From: Escherichia coli
Lineage (GTDB): Bacteria; Pseudomonadota; Gammaproteobacteria; Enterobacterales; Enterobacteriaceae
Assembly: GCF_036507355.1 (NCBI RefSeq)
Contig: NZ_AP027877.1
Direction: 5' to 3' (one strand)
Length of the DNA: 64,000 nucleotides
Shown here: piece after piece, positions 10,757 to 41,119 of the stretch
Position numbering within the stretch: position 1 is the first letter of the stretch
Layout of the letters: every line of letters starts with the position of its first letter
The notes under the pieces: generated by a model
What the model was told of the DNA's origin: nothing
The model's input: only the letters and a program-made list of their open reading frames with translations
Databases searched by the model: none
Position numbers and translations under genes: made by a program

Positions 10757-11929
10757 TTACTGCTTCAGAGTAGCAAATGCCTGAATGATGGCATCGATTT
10801 GCTCACGACTGTGGGCAGCGTTTACGCTACAGCGCAGCAGCGTGATGCCTGCAGGCGCGGCAGGTGGCAGGATAAGATTCACATAAACGCCCAGCGAAAT
10901 AAGCTCGCGCCAGATGCGTAAACCTTCCTCTTTCGAACCGATTATTACCGGCACTACCGGACTAATATGTGAACTTAACTCATAACTCAGCTTTTGCAGC
11001 CCGTCATACAGATGGTTGGCATTATCCATCAGTTTTTGCCGCAACTCTGGTTGAGTGGCAATGGTTCTTAACGACGAGCGCACGGTTGCAATGCAGGAAG
11101 GAGAAGGGGAGGCGGTAAAAATATACGGACGACTGCCGTAGCGCAGCACTTCCATCGCTTCCGAACCCACGGCAAAACCACCAATAGAAGCCAGGCTTTT
11201 ACTGAAGGTGCCAACGATAATATCCACATCATCTTCAACGCCAACGGCTTCAACCAGCCCGCGCCCCGTTGCGCCTAACACGCCAAACGAGTGAGCTTCA
11301 TCGACAATTAAATATCCGCCGAGACGACGTTTGATATCAACAATTTCCGCCAGCGGCGCAACGTCACCGAGCATACTGTAGATGCCCTCAACGATGATAA
11401 TCGCCTCTTTCGCCCGTTCACCGAGGCGAACCATGCGCCGTTCCAGATCTTTAGCATCGTTATGGCGGAAACGAATAATTTCCGCGCCACCGAGAGAACA
11501 GGCGTCATAAATACTGGCGTGGCTGTCAGCATCCAGTAACACCACGGCGTTATGGTCGGCAAGTGCGCTGATGACGCCTAAATTAGCGGTATAACCGGTT
11601 GAAAAAACGATAGCGGTAGGGCGATTGAAAAACTCAGCAATCTCTTTCTCTAACGCCAGATGCGGCGCATAACTGCCGTTTGCCATACGAGAACCGGTGG
11701 TGCCGGTGCCTTGGGCCGCTAACGCTGCCTGACCTTCGGCGATGGCATCATGATTGAAGGTTAATCCGAGATAATTATTGGTCCCGGCCAGAATCACTTT
11801 TTTATTGCCGATCCGGCCTTCGGTGGCGGAATACACTTCATCAATACAGGTGCCAAACGGTGTTAACCCGTTGTCACTAAATTGCAGACGCTCGCCAGCA
11901 AGGCGCGCATATTTATCGTATAGCCCCAT
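10757..11929 (-). CDS. PLP-dependent alpha-oxoamine synthase family acyltransferase (AONS/KBL/serine-palmitoyltransferase-like)
   Basis: 390 aa; class-II aminotransferase fold motifs and PLP lysine context GTFSKSL. Confidence 0.8.
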   Translation of the reverse strand: MGLYDKYARLAGERLQFSDNGLTPFGTCIDEVYSATEGRIGNKKVILAGTNNYLGLTFNHDAIAEGQAALAAQGTGTTGSRMANGSYAPHLALEKEIAEFFNRPTAIVFSTGYTANLGVISALADHNAVVLLDADSHASIYDACSLGGAEIIRFRHNDAKDLERRMVRLGERAKEAIIIVEGIYSMLGDVAPLAEIVDIKRRLGGYLIVDEAHSFGVLGATGRGLVEAVGVEDDVDIIVGTFSKSLASIGGFAVGSEAMEVLRYGSRPYIFTASPSPSCIATVRSSLRTIATQPELRQKLMDNANHLYDGLQKLSYELSSHISPVVPVIIGSKEEGLRIWRELISLGVYVNLILPPAAPAGITLLRCSVNAAHSREQIDAIIQAFATLKQ

Positions 11930-12177
11930 TATTTATTCTCCAGCCATGGAAGTAGAGTTTCCATTAATTGCGCAGGGGTTTTGACATCCAGCAGAATATT
12001 AATAGGAATGGAAATATCGAATCTGTCTTCCAGCATCATTAAGAGATCCATCACTTTGATCGACTCCAGGCCAAGATCGTTGACGAGATCGCTGTCGGGC
12101 TTAATTTCCACACCGTTTTCGACCAAATCCTGTAAACAGGAAAGGATGTAATCCATTACTATTTCACGATTTACCAT
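11929..12177 (-). CDS. Acyl carrier protein
   Basis: 82-aa acidic protein with phosphopantetheine attachment motif DLGLESIKVMDL. Confidence 0.7.
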   Translation of the reverse strand: MVNREIVMDYILSCLQDLVENGVEIKPDSDLVNDLGLESIKVMDLLMMLEDRFDISIPINILLDVKTPAQLMETLLPWLENK

Positions 12178-12208
12178 AGAAACGTTAACACACCTTTAAA
12201 CAAGACAA

Positions 12209-13123
12209 TCAAAATAGCCCGTTGCGTAATGCGTGTTCCAGGCTAATCCCGGGAAACCAATTAATATCTTCAGAAATACGGTTATTACTTGCCGACCAGT
12301 CGGCGTGGGTTAATTCACGAATTTTCGAGCGGGTCAGCATAGGTTCTTTACCTGCCAGGCGACTCAACGCGGTACTGATATCCGCAAGGCAGGTGAGTAC
12401 CGGCAGAGGAATGCCAACCATTCGCACGGAACCACAACGGGCGTCGGCGGCAAGTTGCTGTACGCGTTGCCAGTCATAGCCGCCAGCGACGCCATCGCAT
12501 AATTCATAGGTTTGCGTCTGTACAGTTTCGGCGCTTAACCACTGACCCACTGCTTGCGCAAAATCGGTGACATGCAGGAAAGAGAGCTGTGTATCTGGTG
12601 CACCAAGTCGTGGCAGCAGGCCGCGCAGCATCCAGTCAAACAGCGGTTTTAACTCTTTATCGCCGGGACCATACACGGCTGTCGGGCGAAAAACGCCCAG
12701 CGTAATTTCGTCAGCCATTGCCGTCAGCCGTTGTTCGGCGACGTGTTTGGAATTTGCGTACCAGGAGAGCTCGGGATGGCGCGCCGCCAGCGAAGAGATA
12801 AACAGAAAACGTTGGCAAAAGCCGCTCTCTTTTGCTGCTTGCATCAGGCGCAGGCTGCCGTCAACGTTACAGTGGGTAAAAATCTCTTCTTTGTGTCCGC
12901 GCACTTGCCCGGCGCAATGGACCACCGCGCTGGCTCCGGCAACCAGTTCGCTAAGCGAATGTGTATCTTCCAGCGAACCGCGCACCCAAGTAAGATTATC
13001 ATTGACGTGAGCGCGGGCAGTACGCGTCAATGCGCGAACGTGAAAGCCGCGGGCGAGCAGGTTATCGATAATATATTTACCGATAAAACCGGTAGCGCCC
13101 GTCACCGCGACAGTTTGATTCAT
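12209..13123 (-). CDS. NAD(P)-dependent epimerase/dehydratase or reductase (extended SDR)
   Basis: N-terminal Rossmann motif VAVTGATGFIGKYI; 304 aa. Confidence 0.75.
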   Translation of the reverse strand: MNQTVAVTGATGFIGKYIIDNLLARGFHVRALTRTARAHVNDNLTWVRGSLEDTHSLSELVAGASAVVHCAGQVRGHKEEIFTHCNVDGSLRLMQAAKESGFCQRFLFISSLAARHPELSWYANSKHVAEQRLTAMADEITLGVFRPTAVYGPGDKELKPLFDWMLRGLLPRLGAPDTQLSFLHVTDFAQAVGQWLSAETVQTQTYELCDGVAGGYDWQRVQQLAADARCGSVRMVGIPLPVLTCLADISTALSRLAGKEPMLTRSKIRELTHADWSASNNRISEDINWFPGISLEHALRNGLF

Positions 13124-14844
13124 GCCAGGGATTCCTGCACATGAAGGCTTGCAGCATAAGCCTTCTGATAACGTTTTTTCGCTTCCGCACGGGCAGGCTT
13201 GCCGGAGGACGTTCGGGGAATGCTGTGGGGCGGCAACAGATCGATAGCCGCGGTCACGCCAAATTCGCTTTGGATCCGTGCTGCCAGCGCGTGGATAAGC
13301 TGCCCGCGACGTTCTTCATCGCTGATCCGACACTGGATCTGCAAAATGATTTTTTCCTGGACGGTAACAAAAGCAATCGCATCGCCAGAATGAATTTCCG
13401 GTTCCTGTTCCGCTATATATTCAATATCCTGCGGCCAGATATTACGGCCACGAATAATAATCAGATCTTTAATGCGTCCGGTGACATACAGATAACCATC
13501 CAGCAGATAACCGAGGTCGCCAGTGTCTAACCAGCCCGTCGCGGCAATCTCGTCTTGCGAAGCCTGGTCGCCAAAGTAACCGCTCATCAGACTGGGACCG
13601 GAGATGCAAATATGGCCTACCACACGTTCCGCGACCGGCATACCTGCTTGATTGCGGATTTCAATACCATGTTCCGGCAACGCTTTGCCGCAGTTGACGA
13701 AAGTCGATACGGCGCGTGTCTCTGCACCCGGCGCGACGGCTTTACCCTGATATTCGAGGATGTCGCGATCCACTTCGTTAACTACAACCCCGGAGGCTTC
13801 ATCAGAGAAGCTGACAGCCAGCGCATTTTCTGCCAGGCCGTAGCACGGCATGAAAGTTTTATCGTCAAAGTTAACCTGACGGAAACATTCAGCGAATTGA
13901 TGGAGTTGTTCTGCGGAGATGGGTTCTGCACCAATACCAGCGACGCGCCAGCAGGAAAGATCCAGTTCAGCGAGATCTTTTTCATTCACGCGGCGCTGGC
14001 ACAATTCATAGCCAAACGGCGGCGCAACGGAAACGGTGCCGCGATTTTTACTGATCAATTTAAGCCATTGCAGAGGACGCATGGCAAAATCCTGAGTGCG
14101 CAAATAATCTACTGAAAGTTGCGTGGCGACGGGGGTCAGGAGAAAGCCGACCAGTCCCATATCATGGTAGAAAGGCAGCCAGGAGACGCAGCGGTCGCCA
14201 GGGCGTAATTTAATGCCGTCGTGGCTTATAGCACGTAGATTAGCCATCACTTCGCGATGGGTGATAATGACGCCACGGGGAAAACGGGTGCTGCCGGAGG
14301 TGTACTGGAGGTAGGCGATATCGTTCGGAACTGGACGCTGGAGCGCAACATCGGCTTCCGGTAATGCCTTAAACCAGGCGTGGCTTAAAACATGTAATTC
14401 GGGGTTGTCATGCGTCGCGGCATTGACCAGTGGCAACCACTCATCACCAGTGATAATGGCTGCGGGCTGGCAACTTGTCAGTAAACCCTGCAATTTGGCG
14501 CTCCAGGAATCCCGCTGACCAACGCCCATTGGAATCGCCAACGGGACGGCGACTAAGCCGGCATACTGGCAGGCAAAAAAAGCCTCTACGAACCCGCTAC
14601 TTGTTTCGGCAATCAGTGCCACGCGATCGCCTTTTTTCAGGTTCAGCGATAACAACCGCTTCGCACCAGCTTCGGCACGCGCTTTTAACGTCTGATATTC
14701 CAGTTGATCTTCAAGTTGGCAACGTCTGTCATAAAAATTCATTCCAGCGCTACTCAGAGCGGCGTAGTCCAAAGCATCAACCAGCGTTGGAAAATCGGCA
14801 TAGCGTATAGGTAGGGAATGCGTAAAGATTTTATTAGACATATA
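13120..14844 (-). CDS. Fatty acyl-AMP ligase / acyl-CoA synthetase (AMP-binding superfamily); start taken at ATG MSNKIF
   Basis: AMP-binding motifs (YLQYTSGSTRFPRGV, GYG/ELC region); stop overlaps the start of the downstream epimerase gene. Confidence 0.8.
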   Translation of the reverse strand, partial: YMSNKIFTHSLPIRYADFPTLVDALDYAALSSAGMNFYDRRCQLEDQLEYQTLKARAEAGAKRLLSLNLKKGDRVALIAETSSGFVEAFFACQYAGLVAVPLAIPMGVGQRDSWSAKLQGLLTSCQPAAIITGDEWLPLVNAATHDNPELHVLSHAWFKALPEADVALQRPVPNDIAYLQYTSGSTRFPRGVIITHREVMANLRAISHDGIKLRPGDRCVSWLPFYHDMGLVGFLLTPVATQLSVDYLRTQDFAMRPLQWLKLISKNRGTVSVAPPFGYELCQRRVNEKDLAELDLSCWRVAGIGAEPISAEQLHQFAECFRQVNFDDKTFMPCYGLAENALAVSFSDEASGVVVNEVDRDILEYQGKAVAPGAETRAVSTFVNCGKALPEHGIEIRNQAGMPVAERVVGHICISGPSLMSGYFGDQASQDEIAATGWLDTGDLGYLLDGYLYVTGRIKDLIIIRGRNIWPQDIEYIAEQEPEIHSGDAIAFVTVQEKIILQIQCRISDEERRGQLIHALAARIQSEFGVTAAIDLLPPHSIPRTSSGKPARAEAKKRYQKAYAASLHVQESLA

Positions 14845-15211
14845 CACCACGAAAAAATTGGATATCCAAAATAAAATGACAATAATGCGGTGGATTATAT
14901 AGGCATAAAAGATAAATGAGATAGTATTTTCATCGGTGTGAAAATGAACATTGATTTAAATAATGAGTTTAAGTTTTTTGTTTTTATTGTGAATGATATT
15001 TAATTTATGAATATATTAAGAAGAAGCCTTGTCCGGTCGCCTTAAATCGACAAAAGGCATTGTGGCGCTTCTGCGTAGTCGCTGACCCTATCGTAATCAT
15101 TAATAAATACTATTTATTCGTCGTTTGTATTCATTGGGTTGATTATTAAGATGCCGTTCGTTGCTGTTGCAACCTGTTTTTCACCGTTAATTATTTGTTA
15201 TCCACAGAACT

Positions 15212-26511: not shown

Positions 26512-27324
26512 GTGCTGGATGTTCATCCCAGTGGTTTTTACGCCTGGCTTCAGCAGCCGCATTCACAACGCCATCAGGCAGACCTGAGGCTGACAGGGCA
26601 GATTAAACAGTTCTGGCTGGAATCGGGATGCGTCTATGGTTATCGCAAAATCCATCTGGATCTGCGGGACAGCGGGCAACAGTGCGGAGTGAACAGAGTC
26701 TGGCGACTGATGAAACGTGTCGGGATAAAGGCTCAGGTCGGATACCGGAGCCCGCGGGCACGTAAAGGCGAGGCCAGTATCGTGTCGCCCAACAGGCTCC
26801 AGCGACAGTTCAATCCGGATGCTCCGGATAAGCGTTGGGTAACGGACATAACCTACATCAGGACCCACGAAGGCTGGCTGTATCTTGCCGTGGTTGTTGA
26901 TCTGTTCTCACGCAAAATTATCGGCTGGTCCATGCAATCCCGGATGACAAAGGACATTGTCCTGAACGCACTGCTGATGGCTGTATGGCGCCGTAATCCC
27001 CAAAAACAGGTGCTGGTTCATTCGGATCAGGGCAGTCAGTACACAAGCCATGAGTGGCAGTCGTTCCTGAAATCACACGGCCTGGAGGGCAGCATGAGCC
27101 GTCGCGGTAACTGCCATGATAATGCGGTTGCAGAAAGCTTTTTCCAGTTGTTGAAACGCGAACGGATAAAGAAAAAGATCTACGGAACGCGGGAAGAAGC
27201 CCGCAGCGATATTTTTGATTACATCGAAATGTTTTATAACAGTAAGCGTCGGCATGGTTCCAGCGATCAGATGTCACCGACAGAATATGAAAACCAGTAT
27301 TATCAACGGCTCGGAAGTGTCTAG
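26512..27324 (+). CDS. IS3-family transposase OrfB (DDE/RNase-H-fold integrase core); probably made as an OrfAB fusion starting upstream
   Basis: DDE-type motifs (WVTDITYI..., HSDQGSQYTS, NCHDNAVAESFF). Confidence 0.8.
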   Translation: MLDVHPSGFYAWLQQPHSQRHQADLRLTGQIKQFWLESGCVYGYRKIHLDLRDSGQQCGVNRVWRLMKRVGIKAQVGYRSPRARKGEASIVSPNRLQRQFNPDAPDKRWVTDITYIRTHEGWLYLAVVVDLFSRKIIGWSMQSRMTKDIVLNALLMAVWRRNPQKQVLVHSDQGSQYTSHEWQSFLKSHGLEGSMSRRGNCHDNAVAESFFQLLKRERIKKKIYGTREEARSDIFDYIEMFYNSKRRHGSSDQMSPTEYENQYYQRLGSV

Positions 27325-27758: not shown

Positions 27759-29636
27759 TCAGTCGGTGAGAATTTCTTCATCCGTATCCATTGTGGATGG
27801 TGATGAATCTATTTTTGTTGTAAGAAATACCCGATTCAGTAGTCTTTGCTTCAGGGCGTTTCTTCGCTCATTGTAGAACTCCGGGAAGCGACTGAACTCA
27901 ATATTTTCATCTGAAACTAACAGCATTGATGGCGAATAGTTGTTTGATGGCTGAGATAGCCATTGTTTCAGGGAAGTATCCTGTTTACTTATATTCTGAG
28001 AGTGATTCAGTAAATGAAGATTAGGTATGGTGTCCCAGTGCTCCGGATTTTCATAAAAGCTGAGGTTCTCTGGTGTATTCGCAACATAATCTAATTTTTC
28101 AAGATATTTCTTTGAAAAATGATTTCTTGGGTGAAGGTGATCAATATGAAACACCTCGGTCGGATTCATTTCAGGGAACAGAAGATGCAATAGTGCGCGG
28201 CAACGACCTTCGCCATATCTGATATTGAGAAGGCTTTCGATGTATTCGTCGTCAAATCTGAGGTCTTTATTCGAGCCTTTATATCTGTCAATAATCTTCT
28301 CAAGAGGAAAGTGAATATCTGAAAGACTATTTTTCATTACATCTCTGATACTCGTGAGTAGCGCATCTGCCTGGCTTCCAAAGATCCCTTTCAGAAGTAC
28401 CATGTAAAACCACTGGCTAATTACTGAGCGTTCATTGTGGTTTTTATTCAGGAGATTAATCGTTGTATATAATGGATGTCCACTGGTTTGCTTTTTGTAA
28501 AGCCAGTAGACCACAGGAATGACTGCATTTTTAGATATCAAAGACTGTGGATTGATGCCGAATCGCCTGATAAGAATAAAGGTCTCCTTGATACAGGATT
28601 TTATTTCAGACCATTGTTGTTGTATCTTACCGACCTCCTCTGAAGTGAAGTTTTTTACTTTGAACCGGACGTCAGAGTCAATAAGCATCAGGCTGGTTTT
28701 TAAGAACCAGTCTCTTTCAATATAAAAACCCATTTCATTATTCTGATAAATGTTTTTTGTCAGTTCATCCAGTTCTTTTCTGAAATCACCCTGCCAGTGC
28801 GCTACCGCTATTGACATCAGTAAGTCTGAAAACTCAAGTTTTGTCCCCCCGCTGTTCGTGCGGATGAAAACATCCAGCACATGATCAATGTCCTGACTGC
28901 TCTCATTGAAGTAGTGGATAAGATTCTCAGTTCTTATCTTGGTATAAAGTTTAAGCAGAGTTTTTCTGGAAAATTCACTGGAAATGAGATCTCTTTTTTC
29001 AAGTTCTGGTACGACAACGTTAAATAAAATATCATCAGGCGAATCATGTTGCTCGTATTTGAATATTTCGTGCAGGCAGAACCAGTGATGTTTGTTATCG
29101 GCAAGTGAATCAGTATATTGCTTCTCGGTCAGGAACCTGAAGTTATACTTCATCATGAGCTCATCGTCTGACTTAAGTGGCGCGGTTAAATCGACGTAAA
29201 GCTTTCTGGGTGGCAGGATGCGATCATCCTGTGCCGAAGGCCACCACATCCGGGGCTGTTTATACGCATACGTTCCACACAATCCAATATATAATGATGT
29301 GAGACGCTGCTGACCATCAATCACGGCCTTGAAATCATGAAACCCAGCATTTGTTGCTACGCAGGGGTTTTCTTCATTAAATCGCTGACAGTATTCTTTC
29401 AGGAACTCATAGAATTTGTAATCATTTTTAATACTGGCACTACGGATATCCCACATCATGAAAGAGTTTATCGGGTAGTCTCGCATGATGGAATCAAACA
29501 GCAAACATATCTGACTGCTGCTCCAGACGAACTTCCTCTGAATTGCAGGCAGAAGATAGTGGCGTAAATTAATTGAATCTATCGCTTGTTTTATCGTTAT
29601 TGCTTTTTCATACTGGCCAGCCATCATAAACCTCAT
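27759..29636 (-). CDS. GmrSD-family DUF262 (ParB-like, DGQQR motif) / DUF1524 (His-Me finger) protein; putative type IV modification-dependent restriction endonuclease
   Basis: N-terminal IKQAIDSI...YLLPAIQRKFVWS and IDGQQRLTSL motifs (DUF262); C-terminal FHIDHLHPRNH (DUF1524-like HNH); 625 aa; AT-rich. Confidence 0.75.
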   Translation of the reverse strand: MRFMMAGQYEKAITIKQAIDSINLRHYLLPAIQRKFVWSSSQICLLFDSIMRDYPINSFMMWDIRSASIKNDYKFYEFLKEYCQRFNEENPCVATNAGFHDFKAVIDGQQRLTSLYIGLCGTYAYKQPRMWWPSAQDDRILPPRKLYVDLTAPLKSDDELMMKYNFRFLTEKQYTDSLADNKHHWFCLHEIFKYEQHDSPDDILFNVVVPELEKRDLISSEFSRKTLLKLYTKIRTENLIHYFNESSQDIDHVLDVFIRTNSGGTKLEFSDLLMSIAVAHWQGDFRKELDELTKNIYQNNEMGFYIERDWFLKTSLMLIDSDVRFKVKNFTSEEVGKIQQQWSEIKSCIKETFILIRRFGINPQSLISKNAVIPVVYWLYKKQTSGHPLYTTINLLNKNHNERSVISQWFYMVLLKGIFGSQADALLTSIRDVMKNSLSDIHFPLEKIIDRYKGSNKDLRFDDEYIESLLNIRYGEGRCRALLHLLFPEMNPTEVFHIDHLHPRNHFSKKYLEKLDYVANTPENLSFYENPEHWDTIPNLHLLNHSQNISKQDTSLKQWLSQPSNNYSPSMLLVSDENIEFSRFPEFYNERRNALKQRLLNRVFLTTKIDSSPSTMDTDEEILTD

Positions 29637-29697: not shown

Positions 29698-30027
29698 CTA
29701 ATTTATGCAATGGAAAAGCTGACGGCTCGGTTTGTGTTTTTCATTCGGGTAGACTCGCATTGCGGATGCACAAAGTGATGAAACCTGTCTTGCTATATTT
29801 TTACCGAAGTTAACAAGTAGGCCGTGCTTTATTTTTTCACCCTCTGCCCTGATGCTGATGACAAAGCTGAACTGATATACGATTACCTCAATGAGGTCAT
29901 TGCCAAATGTTATGATGGCGGCGTTGTTTATTTCATATTCATAATCCCTCAGGTCAGTGTTAAGTCTTGCTGTTGCATTTACAAGTGCGTATTCTTTATC
30001 GATAATCATAACTTTCTCACTTATCAT
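29698..30027 (-). CDS. Hypothetical protein (109 aa) immediately upstream of the GmrSD-like gene
   Basis: ATG-initiated ORF on the same strand, 61 bp upstream of the DUF262 gene; no family recognised. Confidence 0.4.
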   Translation of the reverse strand: MISEKVMIIDKEYALVNATARLNTDLRDYEYEINNAAIITFGNDLIEVIVYQFSFVISIRAEGEKIKHGLLVNFGKNIARQVSSLCASAMRVYPNEKHKPSRQLFHCIN

Positions 30028-30067
30028 GTTAATGTGATTTAATCATCACTAATAATATGTTGTGATT

Positions 30068-30781
30068 TTAATTACGATTATTCGTCTGTTTACTCCCGTA
30101 ATGCATTATCTGATGAATAATGTTCATGTGGGGTAAGGCTTCCATAAAGTCAGACTGTTCAATCAGCGAAATGAGTGTGTTATCGATCTCAAACGTTGTA
30201 TCCGGTAATACCTCAACCAGCCTGATTCGGGACAGGGAAATAACGAACACGCCCGATGACGTACATCCGGCAAGAAACCACTCCGCATGGCTGCAAAGCA
30301 GACGATAGGGATGAACGGTATGGCTGACGTTTTCGTCGGTTCTGATACGCACCTTGGTCTGGTTAAGTATGGCGAGCGTTAGTCTGCTGAAATCACCGAA
30401 CAGCGTGGGTTTCTGGCGCGGCTCCGGGAGCATAATCCGGTAGGGTGAAGGGTGCTCCCCGTCAAGCAGAAGGCTCAGCAGTTTGGCATCCATCGCGGGT
30501 AACAGACGGTCAAGATGCAGCAGTCTCGCCAGTATCTTCATATCTCGTTCCGTGCGGCGACGAAAGTAATGTGAGGCAAGCTGATACACGCCGTTGCTCT
30601 GTTCAATATCAAGGTAGGTCAGACGGACGTTGAAATCCCGCCGCAGCGTTCGCGTTGTCACTCCAAATTCTTCTGCCAGCGTCCCGATATGCAGCTTTTC
30701 ACCCTGAAACAAACGGCTCAGGATGATGGAAAGGCGGGTTGCCAGTCTGTCATGTTCGTTTTCTTGTGTTATCAGCGTCAT
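30068..30781 (-). CDS. HTH plus WYL-like domain transcriptional regulator (BrxR/CapW-like candidate)
   Basis: N-terminal HTH_11-like segment (RLSIILSRLFQGEKLHIGTLAEEFGVTTRTLRRDF) followed by a ligand-binding-like domain; sits upstream of a defence gene. Confidence 0.6.
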   Translation of the reverse strand: MTLITQENEHDRLATRLSIILSRLFQGEKLHIGTLAEEFGVTTRTLRRDFNVRLTYLDIEQSNGVYQLASHYFRRRTERDMKILARLLHLDRLLPAMDAKLLSLLLDGEHPSPYRIMLPEPRQKPTLFGDFSRLTLAILNQTKVRIRTDENVSHTVHPYRLLCSHAEWFLAGCTSSGVFVISLSRIRLVEVLPDTTFEIDNTLISLIEQSDFMEALPHMNIIHQIMHYGSKQTNNRN

Positions 30782-30883
30782 ACATCATTTCCGAATTTAG
30801 CCGGGAAATGATGCCAGCAGTAGCGGACAGGATTTGTCCACCCTCTGAAGTTTTTTAAAGTCTGAATACCTTAAATGTAAGTG

Positions 30884-31633
30884 CTAAACGTCAGTATTCT
30901 CAGGTGAATAAAGATGCTTCTGGCGCATGTAGGCAATAAAAATGCAGGATGGTAGCGTCACCCGGTATGCGGGACCGGCTAAATCAATCAGCAGCCAGAG
31001 AGAACTGAGCACCCAGCCCACAGGACCGGCAAAAGCGCCCATGGTACGCGTCAGCATGGCATTTCCTGCAACGGTCAGCCCTCTGCCTAACAGGGCTTTC
31101 GCCACACCATTTGTGACAACAAGTGCCATCTGATAGGCCGCAAACCCGGATGTTTTTATCCCCGCCTGGATTGCCATGGTCAGCAACTCCGGCGTGGGGT
31201 TGCTGTAGCCTGTCTGCAATTCTTCCGCCACGGTCTTTAACTGATCGGGCGTCATCTTCTCAAGGCTTTTCTCCAGGATCTTCATCAGCAGATTCATTTC
31301 AATGGTTTCAACACTGGATTTGTTGTTGTAGTTCACCTTCATTTTATCGCAGGCATCGGTGAGAATTTCCCGGTACGGCACCCCTTTACCCCAGCGGAGC
31401 AGCGTGGCAAAGCTGTTCGCCCCAAACGTCTGAACCTCGGCGGCAATGGCATCCCAGTAGCGCGGGTGGTTGGGCTTGTGTTTTTTATACTGAGGATCAT
31501 AGGTCAGCGTTTCCGTGATGCGTGCCAGTCCGTCTTTCGGATCGCAGATAAGCACAGAAACCAGTAAATCCAGATCGTCACGATGGCAGTGGCGCAGAAA
31601 CTCAAGGTCGGGGTCGTGTCGGTAGGTAGCCAT
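30884..31633 (-). CDS. YaaW-like (UPF0174/DUF3944) protein
   Basis: Resembles recalled YaaW (LEFLRHC..DLDLLV, GPVGWVLSSLWLLIDLAGPAYRVT); 249 aa. Confidence 0.5.
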   Translation of the reverse strand: MATYRHDPDLEFLRHCHRDDLDLLVSVLICDPKDGLARITETLTYDPQYKKHKPNHPRYWDAIAAEVQTFGANSFATLLRWGKGVPYREILTDACDKMKVNYNNKSSVETIEMNLLMKILEKSLEKMTPDQLKTVAEELQTGYSNPTPELLTMAIQAGIKTSGFAAYQMALVVTNGVAKALLGRGLTVAGNAMLTRTMGAFAGPVGWVLSSLWLLIDLAGPAYRVTLPSCIFIAYMRQKHLYSPENTDV

Positions 31634-31774
31634 ATTTCACCTCATTGCAGATATTGGACCTGACAGTTTAAGGAAGCCACCGGACAGGGCTTGTCCGCCT
31701 GAAAAACAAAAAAGTAAAAAAAACCTGCCGAAAGCAGGTTTCTGTTCACCGGATGGAGGTATAACGCGTCGGGA

Positions 31775-32161
31775 TTACTTTCCGCGCCATTCCTTTTCCA
31801 CTTTATCCGCAAAAGCATCGCACTGCCGGGCATATTCCGGGTTATAGAGCAGCTCCGACTGCGAAAGCTGCATGGCGGTCATGCTGCCGTTACGGGCATT
31901 TGATTCGAGCCAGGTTCTGCCATAGGTTTTGTTCATCACCTGAAGTACCCGGTTGAATACCGGTCCGTTGAAGCGGGCATTGAGATTAACGCCTTTTACC
32001 TGAAGGCCGCTGTCACTGGTCTGGGTCAGGCGGGTGGAGTACATCGCGCAGAAGGTCGAGTTGGTTATCATCTGAGCGTCAGCCTGCTCGTCGGCGAACG
32101 CGCTGTGGCTGAAGGCGGAAAGCAGAATTGTGGCGGTTAACAGTTTTAAAATTTTCATCAT
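31775..32161 (-). CDS. Exported hypothetical protein (signal peptide)
   Basis: N-terminal MMKILKLLTATILLSAFSHSAFA signal peptide; 128 aa. Confidence 0.5.
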   Translation of the reverse strand: MMKILKLLTATILLSAFSHSAFADEQADAQMITNSTFCAMYSTRLTQTSDSGLQVKGVNLNARFNGPVFNRVLQVMNKTYGRTWLESNARNGSMTAMQLSQSELLYNPEYARQCDAFADKVEKEWRGK

Positions 32162-32235
32162 GTTCCCTTATGGATTGAAAAGCGGAGACAGCCTGCCATA
32201 CAGGGTGGTCAGGAGATGTCCGGCAGAGAAAAAAG

Positions 32236-32475
32236 TCAGGGTTTCAGCGAGGGAGCCAGTCGCCAGCGGTGAGGGCCAGCAGATTCGAGCACAAAGGCCA
32301 GTTGAGCGAGGTCCCGTCTTGCGGTCCGGGGAGATACGTCAAACTGCCGGATGATGTAGCGAACAGATATTGTCTGACCGTAAAACAGCACCATGGTCAG
32401 CCGGATGAGCCGTTCTCCCTGTCCGGTAGCGTGTTGCCTGCGACGATTAACGTTCATCGTTGCCATACGCGCCAT
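32236..32475 (-). pseudogene. Short HTH-only ORF resembling the N-terminal domain of a DeoR/WYL-type regulator (possible remnant)
   Basis: GERLIRLTMVLFYGQTISVRYIIRQFDVSPRTARRDLAQL is HTH_11-like; only 79 aa and overlaps the 3' end of the neighbouring gene. Confidence 0.35.
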
Positions 32476-32918
32476 CGGTCCCCTTTCTGAAAAGAATCGA
32501 GGTGTCTGGCAAGCCAGATATCAGGGCATGAATTGCCGGTAACGCAGCGGGCAGTAAACCGGTGGCAGTTAAAGTCGAGCAGGCTGTAGGGATAGCGCTG
32601 ACCCACTGCCGCCTTTGCCCGTTCAGCGGCCTGCGCACAACCCTGAGGCGTCAAATCCATACAATCGGTATACACCGAGATAGCGGAGTTCCAGCCATCG
32701 AGCCGGTCAAGAAACCCTTTAGCCTTACTTTTGATAACGGTTCCATCGCCATCAAGATGAACAATATCGCCGTTACCCACATAGATACCGCTGTGTGCGG
32801 CAAGGCCAAAAAGCAGTTCGCACTGCACGATACCACCGTAAGCCGGTTCATCGACGCAGGAGAGAATGCAGTTATCGATAAATGAATCCACGAAGTTCAG
32901 CAGCAGAAGCCGGTACAT
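32454..32918 (-). CDS. LRAT/NlpC-P60-superfamily protein (start at MYRLLLL)
   Basis: His-containing HSGIYVGNGDIVH followed by a C-terminal NCHRF motif resembling the LRAT catalytic-Cys NCEHF box. Confidence 0.5.
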   Translation of the reverse strand: MYRLLLLNFVDSFIDNCILSCVDEPAYGGIVQCELLFGLAAHSGIYVGNGDIVHLDGDGTVIKSKAKGFLDRLDGWNSAISVYTDCMDLTPQGCAQAAERAKAAVGQRYPYSLLDFNCHRFTARCVTGNSCPDIWLARHLDSFQKGDRWRVWQR

Positions 32919-32976: not shown

Positions 32977-33405
32977 TCAGCTTTCCCACAACGTACGGAC
33001 CGTGAAAACCCCCATATCGTGGTAAGCCATAAAGTTACTTTCCCATAGCGACCAGAACTCACGGGCGTCGACATGAGAGATATCGCCACAACGGGAAAGC
33101 CACGTGTATTGTTGCGTCCAGCTCACATCGACATCTTTTTCAAGCTCAGGCCATGGATGCCCTGCATAATGAAAATCGGTGACGTAATCGAGCTGCCAGT
33201 CTTCTCCGGCAGGGATGAGGCGTATTTCGACCGGATGCCAGCCGCCCTTTTCCGGTGAGTATTCAGGGTCACGGAAGTTAATGGTTAATCCGGTGATGGG
33301 GTGACGATGAGGCGGTTTTTGCGCGAGGATATCCAGAAGCAGTTGGGTGAACGACCGGGAGAGAGGCAGCACATAGCCGCCCTGCAATATTACGGGTGAT
33401 GACAT
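32977..33405 (-). CDS. Hypothetical protein (142 aa)
   Basis: ATG ORF, same strand and closely spaced with neighbours; no family recognised. Confidence 0.45.
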   Translation of the reverse strand: MSSPVILQGGYVLPLSRSFTQLLLDILAQKPPHRHPITGLTINFRDPEYSPEKGGWHPVEIRLIPAGEDWQLDYVTDFHYAGHPWPELEKDVDVSWTQQYTWLSRCGDISHVDAREFWSLWESNFMAYHDMGVFTVRTLWES

Positions 33406-33451: not shown

Positions 33452-33883
33452 TTAGTCCTGGCTGAGCGTAGCAAGCTGCGTCATACGATGCTGCCAGTCG
33501 GCATAGCAGCGGTGCATAAAGAGTCTGCTGCTGTCCGCTTCGATAAGGCAGATATCCGGACTTCTGAGTACGGCGGCAAGAAACCCGGCGTTGTTGGTGC
33601 TGCCCTGACCAAATAGTGGTCGAAACACACGCGACGGAAAGCTGTCCTGCTGCTGTTCAAGAATGGCGTGAATCGCATCAAGCGTTATCCATTCACGGGA
33701 GAACAGGCCTCCTTCGCCATTGGCGGTTAAGCGCAGGGCGAGGCTTCCGGTTTCATCCTCCTTACCCAGCTCATACGTCAGCAGTCCCTTACTGTGTGGA
33801 CTGATTTTCTCGGCTTCACCCCTGTAGAACACGGTATAGCTTTCGGTGACGGCGGCTTCGGTAGCGACTTTTTTCTTACTCAT
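33452..33883 (-). CDS. Hypothetical protein (143 aa)
   Basis: ORF whose start overlaps the stop of the upstream gene by 8 nt. Confidence 0.45.
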   Translation of the reverse strand: MSKKKVATEAAVTESYTVFYRGEAEKISPHSKGLLTYELGKEDETGSLALRLTANGEGGLFSREWITLDAIHAILEQQQDSFPSRVFRPLFGQGSTNNAGFLAAVLRSPDICLIEADSSRLFMHRCYADWQHRMTQLATLSQD

Positions 33884-34247
33884 GGTTCAGCGCCTCAATC
33901 AGGTTCTGGAGTTGAGTGATAACGGTCGTGTCCGGGAACACCAGATAGATACCCTGTCCGTTATCGCAGACGATACCGAGCAGGAGATACCAGCCATCAT
34001 CAAGTGCGGTGACGTATTCCGGGTTAGCCAGTGCCACTGCCAGCAGCGGGTCTTCGGGGAGGGTGTCATCGTGGTTGAGATGCCAGAGCAGGGTTCTTGT
34101 TTCTTTCCAGAAAGCAGTAAACAGGTCGATATCATCTACGGGGCCAAGAATTTCATTGCTGAGGGCTTCCAGCGCGGAGGCTGGCAGGTTGAGAAGGGAA
34201 ATACTGGTAGGGGTTGTGAGTTTGTACATAGTTATCTCCATCATCAA
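33876..34247 (-). CDS. Hypothetical protein (123 aa)
   Basis: First gene of a four-gene minus-strand cluster; no family recognised. Confidence 0.4.
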   Translation of the reverse strand: MMMEITMYKLTTPTSISLLNLPASALEALSNEILGPVDDIDLFTAFWKETRTLLWHLNHDDTLPEDPLLAVALANPEYVTALDDGWYLLLGIVCDNGQGIYLVFPDTTVITQLQNLIEALNHE

Positions 34248-34457
34248 TCGAATATCATGGAAATAATATGTGTCCGTTTTAAGGGCTATTACAGGCTTGG
34301 TGTGTTGGATTTGTTTTTCTTATTACGAACAAATAGCGACTGGCTCAGGCCGGGATTGTTTAGAGACAGATTCAGCATAGATTCGTAAAAATAAAAACTA
34401 TTAGCGCGAGATCCTCTGTTTATGCCGTGACAGTTAACTGATAGGAGGCTTGTTGGT

Positions 34458-35163
34458 TGGATTTGCCCCTATATTTCCAGACACCTGTTATCACTTAACC
34501 CATTACTGGCCCGCTGCCGCAGATATTCCCGTGGCGAGCGATAACCCAGCGCACTATGCGGATGCCATTCGTTATAATGCTCGAACGCCTCTGCAAGGTT
34601 CTTTGCTGCCGTTAACCCGTCTGGTTTGGGCATGATACTTATGTAGTCACGCTTTATCGTTTTCACGAAGCTCTCTGCTATTCCGTTACTCTCCGGACTC
34701 CGCACTGCCGTGTTCTTCGGTTCAAGTCCCAACATCCTGGCGAACTGACGTGTTTCATTCGCCCGGTAGCATGAACCATTATCCGTCAGCCACTCCACTG
34801 GAGACGCCGGAAGCTCGCTGCCAAAGCGGCGTTCCACTGCTCCCAGCATGACGTCCTGTACTGTTTCACTGTCGAAGCCACCCGTTGTGACCCCCCAGTG
34901 CAGTGCCTCACGGTCACAGCAGTCCAACGCGAACGTGACCCGCAGTTTTTCTCCGTTATCACAGCGGAACTCAAACCCGTCAGAGCACCATCGCTGATTA
35001 CTTTCTTTCACAGCCACTCTGCCGGTATGTGCCCGTTTCGATGGCGGTACAGCGGGTTTTCGCTCAAGCAACAGCGCATTCTGGCGCATGATCCGGTAAA
35101 CACGTTTGGCATTGATCGCAGGCATACCATCAAGTTCTGTTTGTCTGCGAAGCAGCGCCCATA
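34458..35163 (-). mobile_element. IS2 fragment (right-hand about 0.7 kb: 3' part of insD plus the right inverted repeat); the left half is missing
   Basis: tggatttgcccctatatttccagacacctgttatcacttaa at 34458-34498 matches the recalled IS2 right IR; the adjacent ORF matches InsD from [10 protein letters not shown] to ...NRCLEI. Confidence 0.85.
34469..35125 (-). pseudogene. insD: IS2 transposase InsD, C-terminal about 218 codons only
   Basis: Translation matches the recalled InsD C-terminal two-thirds; homology extends upstream to about 35163 ([12 protein letters not shown]) and then stops. Confidence 0.85.
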
Positions 35164-35636
35164 ACGCAGCCCTTGCCTTACTGGTGTTTCTGGCCCTGAC
35201 CGGATTACGCCTTGGTGAAACCCGTTATCTTCTGCTTGAGGATATCGACTGGTCCCGTCAGACCATCACTTTGCGAGAAACTAAAAACGGTAAGCTTCGC
35301 TGTGTGCCAGTGGGTGATAAGGCCTTTGTTCTTCTGACTGAGCAGCGCCAGCACTTGGGCGATAAAGGCTGGGTTTTCCCCGGCTATAACACAACTAATC
35401 CGGTTGCAGAACCACGCCGTCTGCAAAAGCGTATATGTGAGAAAGCCGGTATTTCACCATTCACTATTCATGAGATGCGACACACTTTCGCCACGAAACT
35501 TATCGAGAGTGGGGCTGACATCCATACCATCAAAGATTTACTGGGCCACAGCACCATAAAGGTTACCGAGAGGTACCTACATGGCAGCCCGGTGCGCTAC
35601 CACGAGGCCATTAACAAGGCGATGGATACGTTCTAG
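35160..35636 (+). pseudogene. Tyrosine recombinase (phage-type integrase), C-terminal catalytic domain only, N-terminus replaced by the IS2 fragment
   Basis: [17 protein letters not shown] (box I), HEMRHTFAT and LLGHSTIKVTERYLH (box II with catalytic Tyr) motifs; abuts the IS2 fragment. Confidence 0.7.
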
Positions 35637-40066: not shown

Positions 40067-41119
40067 ATGGGGATCATCGTACGAATTCTTAAAGCTAACC
40101 ATGGCGATTGCATTTTGGTGAGCCATGAAAGCGGTTCAGGCACTCTCAACTTGCTCATTGATGGGGGACCTGCGACGACATTCAGGTATGGCATTAGGCA
40201 GCGCTATTCTGGAGCATTGAGTAACGCTCTCGATGATCTGAAAGGAAAGGGGCAAAACATTGATCTGGCTATCCTGACCCACATTGATGATGATCACATA
40301 AATGGTTTTATCAAGGCATTCGAAAGTCCAAACTATCTGCGTCAGCTGGTTAAATCGATCTGGTTCAATTCTTCGAGGTTAATCACACATCATTTTAATG
40401 TGCCTGAAATTTGTGAAAATAATATTTTCTTGCAGGAAGTTTCCCCTGAAACTAGCGTTAAACAGGGGCAAGAACTTGAGGCATTACTTGATGAAATCGG
40501 ATGTGTGCGAGCACCGCTCATTATGGCAGGGCAAATCTACAAAGTAGGCCCGATTACTTTAACAGCACTTTCACCTGAACGAAGACAACTCGAACAGCTT
40601 TTGCATAAGTGGCCAACGGAAGTAAGTTCAGCTGACACTTCTTCATATGAGAATGATTATCACCGTTCATTGGACGAAATTTGGGCAGATGATAGATTTG
40701 AATCTGACTCATCTATTTATAATGGAAGCTCAATTGCATTTTTACTGGAAACAGATGACAAAAAAATGCTTTTTTTAGGAGACGCCAATGACCAAGTTGT
40801 TACAAAAAATTTAAGAGCATTGGGCTATAGCGAAACAAACAAGTTGAAGCTGGATCTGGTTAAAGTTTCGCATCATGGTAGTCAATACAACACAAGCAAC
40901 GAATTTCTTTCAATACTAGATTCTCCATGCTTTGTTATTTCAACCAATGGTTCGAAGCATGGTCTTCCTAATAAAAGGACTATTGCAAGGATCTTAAAGG
41001 AAACAGATGGTGATATTTATTTTAATTACAGCAATGTAATTACTCCGCTGCTTTTAGCGCATGAAGCTGAGAGCTATTCTTCTCGTCTAAAAGTGCTAGG
41101 TGATGAGATTAAATTCTAA
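40067..41119 (+). CDS. Metallo-beta-lactamase-fold hydrolase (candidate nuclease/effector); gene 1 of the candidate defence operon
   Basis: MBL motifs HGDC, THIDDDH, SHHGS; 350 aa; AT-rich. Confidence 0.7.
   Translation: MGIIVRILKANHGDCILVSHESGSGTLNLLIDGGPATTFRYGIRQRYSGALSNALDDLKGKGQNIDLAILTHIDDDHINGFIKAFESPNYLRQLVKSIWFNSSRLITHHFNVPEICENNIFLQEVSPETSVKQGQELEALLDEIGCVRAPLIMAGQIYKVGPITLTALSPERRQLEQLLHKWPTEVSSADTSSYENDYHRSLDEIWADDRFESDSSIYNGSSIAFLLETDDKKMLFLGDANDQVVTKNLRALGYSETNKLKLDLVKVSHHGSQYNTSNEFLSILDSPCFVISTNGSKHGLPNKRTIARILKETDGDIYFNYSNVITPLLLAHEAESYSSRLKVLGDEIKF

Follow-up and report, generated by a model that had tools for sequence, protein, structure and literature searches.

The proteins most closely comparable to the one described here are BrxR and CapW. 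BrxR is a dimeric DNA-binding repressor that acts on inverted repeats; an arginine in its first helix, R17, is essential, and dimerization takes place via a cross-over helix and the C-terminal domain (PMC9122601). The element most closely comparable to the surrounding genomic locus is the pipolin, the gammaproteobacterial core of which is composed of IntSXT, IntP2, DUF2787, WYL, orphan genes, and piPolB (PMC11551731). In the same work, "piPolB-less, pipolin-like islands" receive no more than a passing mention, and the small HTH gene is not described. An enrichment of WYL and HTH genes has been reported for the genomic neighborhoods of jukA (bioRxiv 10.1101/2022.09.17.508391).

We examined an open reading frame (ORF) of 79 amino acids, hereafter HTH79, that is encoded in an island of Escherichia coli within an analyzed stretch of 64,000 nucleotides, which we refer to as the window. 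The first-pass annotation had proposed that this orphan ORF may be the remnant of a second WYL/DeoR-type regulator whose partner module had been lost. The analysis reported here corrects that reading, from a pseudogene-like remnant to a conserved core gene of an integrated-island family in enteric bacteria, and, in the core of piPolB-less, pipolin-like defense islands at pheV, gives one of the otherwise "orphan" genes a name.

Genomic neighborhood of HTH79

The following features outline the genomic neighborhood in which HTH79 is encoded.

26512-27324, plus strand: IS3-family transposase at the cargo end
27759-29636, minus strand: gene for a DUF262 protein (PADLOC candidate HEC-05, E 5e-231)
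30068..30781, minus strand: HTH-WYL regulator, 237 aa (Pfam HTH_DeoR and WYL; PADLOC WYL, E 4e-15)
30783..30813, no strand assigned: CATCATTTCC-N11-GGAAATGATG, a perfect inverted repeat of 10 bp immediately in front of the WYL regulator gene and a candidate operator
30884..31633, minus strand: JukA/YaaW-like gene with DUF3944 and a Cbp3-like domain (PADLOC JukA, E 6e-72; Pfam)
34469-35125, minus strand, and 35106-35636, plus strand: IS3-family fragment and second tyrosine recombinase region
40067-46063, plus strand: ABC-3C conflict system of four genes (MBL-fold protein, trypsin-CTD4 effector, MComp1, and SMC-like ABC ATPase)
46900-46975, minus strand: tRNA-Phe

The host element is best called a piPolB-less, pipolin-like defense island, with the glc operon on one side and the pheV region on the other. 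It has in common with the pipolin core two tyrosine recombinases, DUF2787, a WYL regulator, orphan genes, and variable defense cargo, and its DUF2787 gene, WYL regulator, and two recombinases are found near the integration site, as in the published definition of pipolins (PMC11551731). Pipolins carry piPolB, whereas none was found among the assigned ORFs of this island, which encodes a DUF927 primase-helicase-like protein instead. All ORFs of at least 150 amino acids between 25.9 and 39.6 kb are otherwise assigned (IS3, HEC-05, the WYL regulator, the JukA-like gene, LRAT, integrases, and DUF927), with the exception of a single antisense ORF (33846..34388, plus strand, 180 aa) that overlaps two genes of the core operon, h143 and h123. 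Upstream of the core operon we found an IS3-disrupted integrase, the DUF927 gene, and a second integrase. The cargo is variable within the island family: HEC-05 is the only defense cargo of the island in the strain of the window; type I R-M, methyltransferases, or PDC-M40 occupy the corresponding position in related islands. In the strain of the window the island is probably immobilized and its cargo shortened. The second tyrosine recombinase is truncated by the IS3-family fragment, which also takes the place of most of the sequence upstream of the core operon.

The 237-aa HTH-WYL regulator is the "first" regulator to which the first-pass annotation alludes. The arrangement of the JukA-like gene and this regulator fits the published association of jukA with WYL genes, and the JukA-like block downstream travels with HTH79 in some loci; no match to JukB was found beside the JukA-like gene. 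The inverted repeat in front of the WYL regulator has no second exact copy in the window.

A scan of 25.8-47.2 kb against Rfam returned only the tRNA-Phe. The ABC-3C system is encoded between the island integrase and this tRNA gene, so that at least two defense elements stand in tandem in the pheV region. A serine palmitoyltransferase-like gene, which matches an NCBIfam equivalog with 595 bits (cut-off 500), is found upstream of the glc operon together with a fatty acyl-AMP ligase gene (10757-14850, minus strand); the two look like a small lipid-biosynthesis cluster.

Domain composition and predicted structure of HTH79

The HTH79 gene can be divided into a tail and a domain.

32236..32475, minus strand: HTH79 gene, 79 aa, with an ATG start and its stop codon at 32236-32238 (ORF list)
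32425..32475, minus strand: codons 1-17, disordered, basic, and fast-evolving N-terminal tail (pLDDT, pN/pS)
32239..32424, minus strand: codons 18-79, complete winged helix (DSSP on the AlphaFold model, pN/pS)

In the Pfam scan, HTH79 matched HTH_DeoR above the gathering cut-off of 21 (26.4 bits, E 5.7e-6, residues 26-60) and, over the same stretch, HTH_11 below its cut-off of 25 (20.7 bits); no other domain was found, in agreement with the initial description of the ORF as one bearing an HTH alone. No WYL domain was detected by Pfam at E values up to 1, and the WCX dimerization domain is absent according to both Pfam and tblastn. The DeoRC effector domain likewise gave no Pfam match, and 79 amino acids leave no room for it. 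A weak match to the N-terminus of UlaR was observed in NCBIfam (21.5 bits against a cut-off of 244), and the PADLOC WYL-regulator model matches HTH79 over model positions 4-42 only.

The type of the HTH bears on the proposal that HTH79 is a recombination directionality factor (excisionase) for the tyrosine recombinases of the island. A small basic winged-helix protein encoded in an integrative island with two integrases would suit such a role, but the HTH is of the DeoR/HTH_11 type, and Xis, AlpA, and MerR-type (HTH_17) models gave no match to HTH79 at E values up to 1; the only MerR-family match in the Pfam scan belongs to the 237-aa regulator. Moreover, HTH79 is located approximately 2.6 kb from the nearest integrase fragment, adjoins neither integrase, and is part of a cargo-side operon, and in one locus (L008) its homolog is encoded beside BREX on a contig, albeit a short one, from which an integrase is absent. 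We regard a role as excisionase as extremely unlikely.

The AlphaFold model of HTH79, based on an alignment of 22 sequences, has a mean pLDDT of 84, with values of approximately 95 over residues 20-70 and below 50 for residues 1-12. DSSP assigns helix 1 to residues 19-31 of this model, helix 2 to residues 38-45, the recognition helix (helix 3) to residues 49-58, and the beta-hairpin wing to residues 63-73; the arginine-rich tail is disordered in the model, and the protein ends six residues past the wing. R22 in helix 1 and R50, T51, and R54 in the recognition helix are invariant across short and full-length relatives. The top TM-scores in a search of PDB structures were obtained for CapW (0.66) and BrxR (0.63-0.65); the E-values of all Foldseek matches are weak (best 4.7e-3), which a domain of 60 residues would lead one to expect. 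A sequence search of the PDB with the family profile produced no significant match (best E 0.1).

The resemblance to the N-terminus of WYL regulators that was seen at the outset is borne out both by these structural matches and by longer homologs. Four full-length relatives of 293-300 aa (P0045, P0046, P0050, and P0060) have the HTH-WYL-WCX architecture and match HTH79 with 35-40% identity in the HTH alone; they align from helix 1 to the last post-wing residue of HTH79 and then run on. When these four proteins were compared by tblastn with positions 30000-32480 of the window, only their residues 1-73 matched HTH79, again with 35-40% identity, and their HTH and WYL parts matched the separate 237-aa regulator at 30068..30781. 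Nothing similar to WYL or WCX was found in any frame between HTH79 and this regulator, and the decayed WYL domain for which a check of the downstream frames had been suggested did not emerge.

Full-length HTH-WYL-WCX relatives are encoded directly upstream of the operons of PADLOC candidates PDC-M40 and PDC-M09, which supports an affinity of this HTH clade with defense islands. The loci headed by a full-length relative (PADLOC, PDC-M40B / PDC-M09A) are as follows.

L017, 333-4172
L009, 8317-11436
L021, 439-2954

L017 also contains, after PDC-M40B, a distinct gene of 204 aa with an LRAT domain, and enzymes of the LRAT type are thus recurrent neighbors of the HTH clade to which HTH79 belongs.

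Occurrence, selection, and conservation of length and position

Of 5426 complete E. coli genomes, 113 contain an ungapped full-length match to the 240-nt gene, with identity of 90.4-99.6%. RefSeq reports a "DeoR family transcriptional regulator" at this position in all 40 sampled E. coli records, with starts that differ: the model has 79 aa in E. coli strain 54 (L022 601-840) and 52 aa in E. coli G3/10 (L001 9539-9697). The residues upstream of Met28, the start of the 52-aa model, are invariant in the family (G20-E-R-L-I-R-L) while their codons vary synonymously, and Met28 itself is replaced by Ile in L009 and missing from L008; therefore, translation must begin upstream of helix 1. Judged from these sequences, the 52-aa model starts too late and cannot be right: its start deletes helix 1 of the domain. 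Possible alternative starts within the tail are M1, M4, and M7, and the start codon differs among loci.

Ratios of substitutions indicate that the winged-helix core is under purifying selection. When ten close loci were pooled, pN/pS was 0.12 for the core (codons 18-79) and 0.46 for tail codons 8-17; against diverged loci, dN/dS of HTH79 is 0.15-0.32, with dS near or past saturation. The tail occurs in two allelic forms, NVNRRRQHA and KASRCRQRV.

A word-indexed search returned 38 clusters of homologs from Escherichia, Enterobacter, and Citrobacter, most of them exactly 79 aa long. In a profile search against 1.84 billion representatives, the nearest families are short as well (72, 76, 81, and 76 aa, all with E <=2.5e-8), and at E values of approximately 1e-6 to 1e-4 proteins of 293-300 aa are mixed with short ones of 71-100 aa. 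The length of homologs remains at 71-81 aa down to approximately 32-36% identity, and the genera represented are Escherichia, Enterobacter, Citrobacter, Kluyvera, Buttiauxella, Pseudocitrobacter, and Yersinia. A tblastn comparison with plasmids gave no match. A chance ORF was considered as well and rejected on the basis of the occurrence in 113 of the 5426 genomes, the annotation, the homologs of 71-81 aa elsewhere, the purifying selection, and the confidently predicted fold.

The position of the gene is conserved along with its length. The order h117/123, h143, DUF2787, LRAT, HTH is found in metagenomic contigs L002, L005, L006, and L009 and in seven species-representative genomes of Enterobacter, Kluyvera, Pseudocitrobacter, and Buttiauxella, and the order DUF2787, LRAT, HTH is kept in L002, L005, L006, L009-L016, and the Yersinia loci L023 and L024. 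(A conservation-based locus search with a narrow alignment gave seven loci, all of them close relatives.) The Yersinia homolog has 71 aa and approximately 34-36% identity to HTH79, and its LRAT-HTH junction is TAATG (L023); L007 keeps an overlap of 22 nt with LRAT at 44% identity of the HTH. A position after DUF2787, mostly with overlap of LRAT, is kept in all examined loci but one. L008 encodes, in this order, brxL, HTH76, a JukA-like gene, and an HTH regulator, and no LRAT. In L025 the HTH gene follows DUF2787 after a gap of 295 nt that contains no LRAT remnant.

In six of the 38 homolog clusters (P0028, P0031-P0034, and P0036), which have between one and five members each, the gene is frame-shifted after codon 49 at a CCCC run; intact clusters, by contrast, have 214, 204, 61, and 29 members. 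The frame-shifted clusters could be cases of occasional inactivation or of homopolymer assembly error at the CCCC run, which falls in the region of the recognition helix, and they are not the norm. If the frame-shifts are real, some hosts can do without the HTH79 gene at no obvious cost.

These data bear directly on the reading of HTH79 as a decayed second WYL-type regulator that lost its WYL and WCX domains together with a partner defense module and is non-functional or on its way out. It is true that the nearest longer relatives are HTH-WYL-WCX regulators, that HTH79 stops exactly where the wHTH domain ends, and that a few frame-shifted variants exist. This reading is contradicted by a length of 71-81 aa held as far as Yersinia at approximately 34-36% identity, by the core pN/pS of 0.12, by the absence of WYL/WCX similarity from every downstream frame, by a distance of merely 74 nt to the next conserved gene, and by a fixed place in the island core. 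The remnant reading is thus largely refuted, and we find it scarcely credible. The original interpretation stands in that HTH79 is HTH-only and has HTH-WYL-WCX regulators as its nearest longer kin; the words "orphan" and "remnant" with a lost partner have to be given up, since what we found is an intact small regulator conserved at the same length. The gene may have arisen long ago by loss of WYL and WCX from a BrxR-like ancestor, and such an ancient domain loss would not make the present gene a remnant. We are highly confident that HTH79 is an intact, selected, stand-alone wHTH gene. It is predicted to be an ordinary small winged-helix regulator, already annotated in RefSeq.

Operon organization

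HTH79 is the fifth of six same-strand genes, h123, h143, DUF2787, LRAT, HTH79, and SP127, and the relevant features of this run, listed by position, are given below.

31719..31743, minus strand: intrinsic-terminator-like hairpin with an 11-bp stem and a T run, ending the run from h123 to SP127 (also picked up by the inverted-repeat scan)
31775..32161, minus strand: SP127, 128 aa, 74 nt past the end of HTH79 and final gene ahead of the terminator-like hairpin (ORF list)
32454..32475, minus strand: overlap of LRAT and HTH79, 22 nt, in which the LRAT stop TGA at 32454-32456 overlaps the codon-7 ATG as ATGA (sequence)
32454..32918, minus strand: LRAT/NlpC-P60-like gene, 154 aa from the PGAP start, with the longest ORF extending to 33089 (Pfam LRAT, E 1e-10; RefSeq)
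32479..32486, minus strand: AAAGGGGA, a Shine-Dalgarno-like motif within the coding sequence of LRAT, with 3 nt between it and the first ATG (sequence)
32977..33405, minus strand: DUF2787 gene, part of the conserved core of the island family (Pfam DUF2787, E 1.4e-32; synteny)
33452..33883, minus strand: h143, 143 aa (ORF list, conserved synteny)
33876..34247, minus strand: h123, 117-123 aa, the first gene of the same-strand run (ORF list, conserved synteny)

A promoter-proximal block of approximately 55 nt is conserved upstream of h123, and no terminator-like site was found between LRAT and SP127. The overlap of the ORF with the end of the LRAT-like gene, reported in the first-pass annotation, is confirmed, and both the ribosome-binding site and the start codon of HTH79 are located inside the 3' end of LRAT. 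Overlaps of 13-22 nt between LRAT and the HTH gene are found in L002, L005, L006, L007, and L009, with TAATG in L023, and the Shine-Dalgarno-like motif is kept as AAAGGAGA or AAAGGGGA in L002, L005, L006, and L009. Because of the anatomy of the gene run, the Shine-Dalgarno-like motif, and the overlap of start and stop, we infer that HTH79 is co-transcribed with LRAT in the island core operon and is probably also translationally coupled with it.

The last gene of the run, SP127, encodes an N-terminal hydrophobic segment that resembles a signal peptide (MMKILKLLTATILLSAFSHSAFA). It is syntenic in most loci and evolves fast, with 50-51% identity in L002 and L009 versus 88-89% for LRAT. With Pfam, NCBIfam, and PADLOC, neither SP127 nor h143 nor h123 was placed in a family, and LRAT matched nothing besides its Pfam domain.

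Relation of HTH79 to LRAT and to the JukA-like block

The overlap with LRAT permits the interpretation that HTH79 neutralizes or gates the LRAT acyltransferase/hydrolase and auto-represses the pair, in a toxin-antitoxin-like or immunity-like manner. The overlap is kept, from 22 nt to TAATG, across divergence of LRAT to 53-59% identity, and the catalytic motifs of LRAT appear intact, with NCHRF and His motifs visible in its translation. However, LRAT adjoins the HTH gene in most loci only and is absent in L008 and L025, which is at odds with the obligate adjacency to a toxin gene; HTH79 has no extension past the wHTH for toxin binding; and none of the toxin-antitoxin or other system models of PADLOC is matched, only the generic WYL-regulator model matching HTH79. 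The histories of the two genes also seem to differ. Between the window and L002, dS is 0.63 for LRAT but has reached saturation in HTH79 and in the genes downstream of it (SP127, the JukA-like gene, and the WYL regulator), and the HTH79 tail just past the LRAT junction is a local peak of divergence. This step at the junction (32454) suggests a recombination breakpoint inside the island core, and LRAT and HTH79 are thus without one common history. HTH79 is located at a mosaic boundary and tied to no single partner, which argues against an obligate pairing of the toxin-antitoxin type with LRAT. On balance, we consider a partnership of this kind unlikely.

HTH79 may instead be the first gene of a downstream unit comprising HTH79, SP127, the JukA-like gene, and the WYL regulator, and regulate the JukA-like/WYL part rather than DUF2787 and LRAT. 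L008 keeps HTH76, the JukA-like gene, and the HTH regulator beside BREX brxL without LRAT, the divergence of HTH79 is high like that of the downstream genes and unlike that of LRAT, and the published enrichment of WYL/HTH genes around jukA (bioRxiv 10.1101/2022.09.17.508391) points in the same direction. On the other hand, L009, L023/L024, and L007 (a contig of only 2.1 kb) carry the HTH gene with no JukA-like gene nearby, and in the window the terminator-like hairpin stands between SP127 and the JukA-like gene. Regulation of this block, which we regard as doubtful, is a variant of the best explanation given below: the activity is the same and the target is another.

Predicted function

The best explanation, in which we place moderate confidence, is that HTH79 is an intact stand-alone wHTH protein gene encoding a ligand-independent transcription factor for island genes; for the function as transcription factor for island genes, taken by itself, the balance is slightly better than even. 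A regulatory role is supported by the fact that relatives act as regulators: BrxR is a repressor, and full-length kin are encoded upstream of PDC-M40 and PDC-M09. The protein is composed of two parts, a basic disordered N-terminal arm and a complete wHTH ending just past the wing, the latter a homolog of the BrxR/CapW DNA-binding domain. It is predicted to bind DNA as BrxR does, with the recognition helix (R50, T51, and R54) and the helix-1 arginine R22 as contacts, and to do so without ligand sensing and without dimerization in the manner of BrxR. Such a protein could act as a constitutive, dosage-dependent regulator with a level set by the LRAT operon, possibly with help from the basic arm. 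Most likely it would be a repressor, either of the island core genes or of the adjoining block of the JukA-like gene and WYL regulator.

A point against this explanation is that HTH79 is without every dimerization element known in the BrxR family (PMC9122601), which makes the recognition of a site with useful affinity a difficulty. An inverted-repeat scan of the region for an operator of HTH79 gave only the site before the WYL regulator (30783-30813), and footprinting upstream of the operon showed conservation of only the promoter-proximal block of approximately 55 nt, with no consistent dyad.

A more specific proposal is that HTH79 is a sensor-less BrxR-type paralog, retained in the conserved island core, that acts on the operators of the full-length WYL regulators of the cargo. 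As such it could be a constitutive co-repressor, or a competitor that sets the basal expression or the de-repression threshold of the plugged-in defense system, and if this were true HTH79 would be a universal regulatory adaptor for exchangeable defense cargo. We consider this proposal very unlikely. For HTH79 as a transcription factor of island genes in general, its target, if found, could show how the island controls the LRAT/DUF2787 operon or the JukA-like/WYL block with no regulator that senses a ligand. In practical terms, the findings are of modest value.

Comparison with known regulator families

HTH79 resembles HTH-type type II antitoxins in its small size, its DNA-binding domain, and the overlap of its gene with the gene for a potentially harmful enzyme. 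In contrast to them, it has no toxin-binding extension, its partner is dispensable in some loci, and it is encoded in a run of six genes.

With DeoR-family regulators HTH79 has in common the HTH_DeoR domain (26.4 bits, cut-off 21). These regulators have a DeoRC sugar-phosphate sensor, whereas HTH79 is without one and has a quarter of the usual length. The RefSeq name "DeoR family" reflects the HTH sub-type only, and HTH79 is not a canonical DeoR-family regulator.

The closest resemblance is to BrxR and CapW (PDB 7QFZ, 7TB5, and 7TB6; PMC9122601). The wHTH fold is the same (TM 0.63-0.66), the HTH is 35-40% identical to that of uncharacterized family-type proteins of 293-300 aa, and both BrxR/CapW and HTH79 are encoded in defense islands. 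An arginine is present at the start of helix 1 in both, R17 in BrxR and R22 in HTH79, and the two are probably equivalent, a correspondence drawn from their place in the helix rather than from an alignment. [quoted passage not shown] In addition, HTH79 is the fifth gene within the operon that it possibly controls and is not encoded upstream of it. HTH79 possesses the N-terminal winged HTH of the BrxR/CapW family and is not a member of it, because WYL and WCX are absent; it is best described as a sensor-less, stand-alone version of the BrxR/CapW-type DNA-binding domain.
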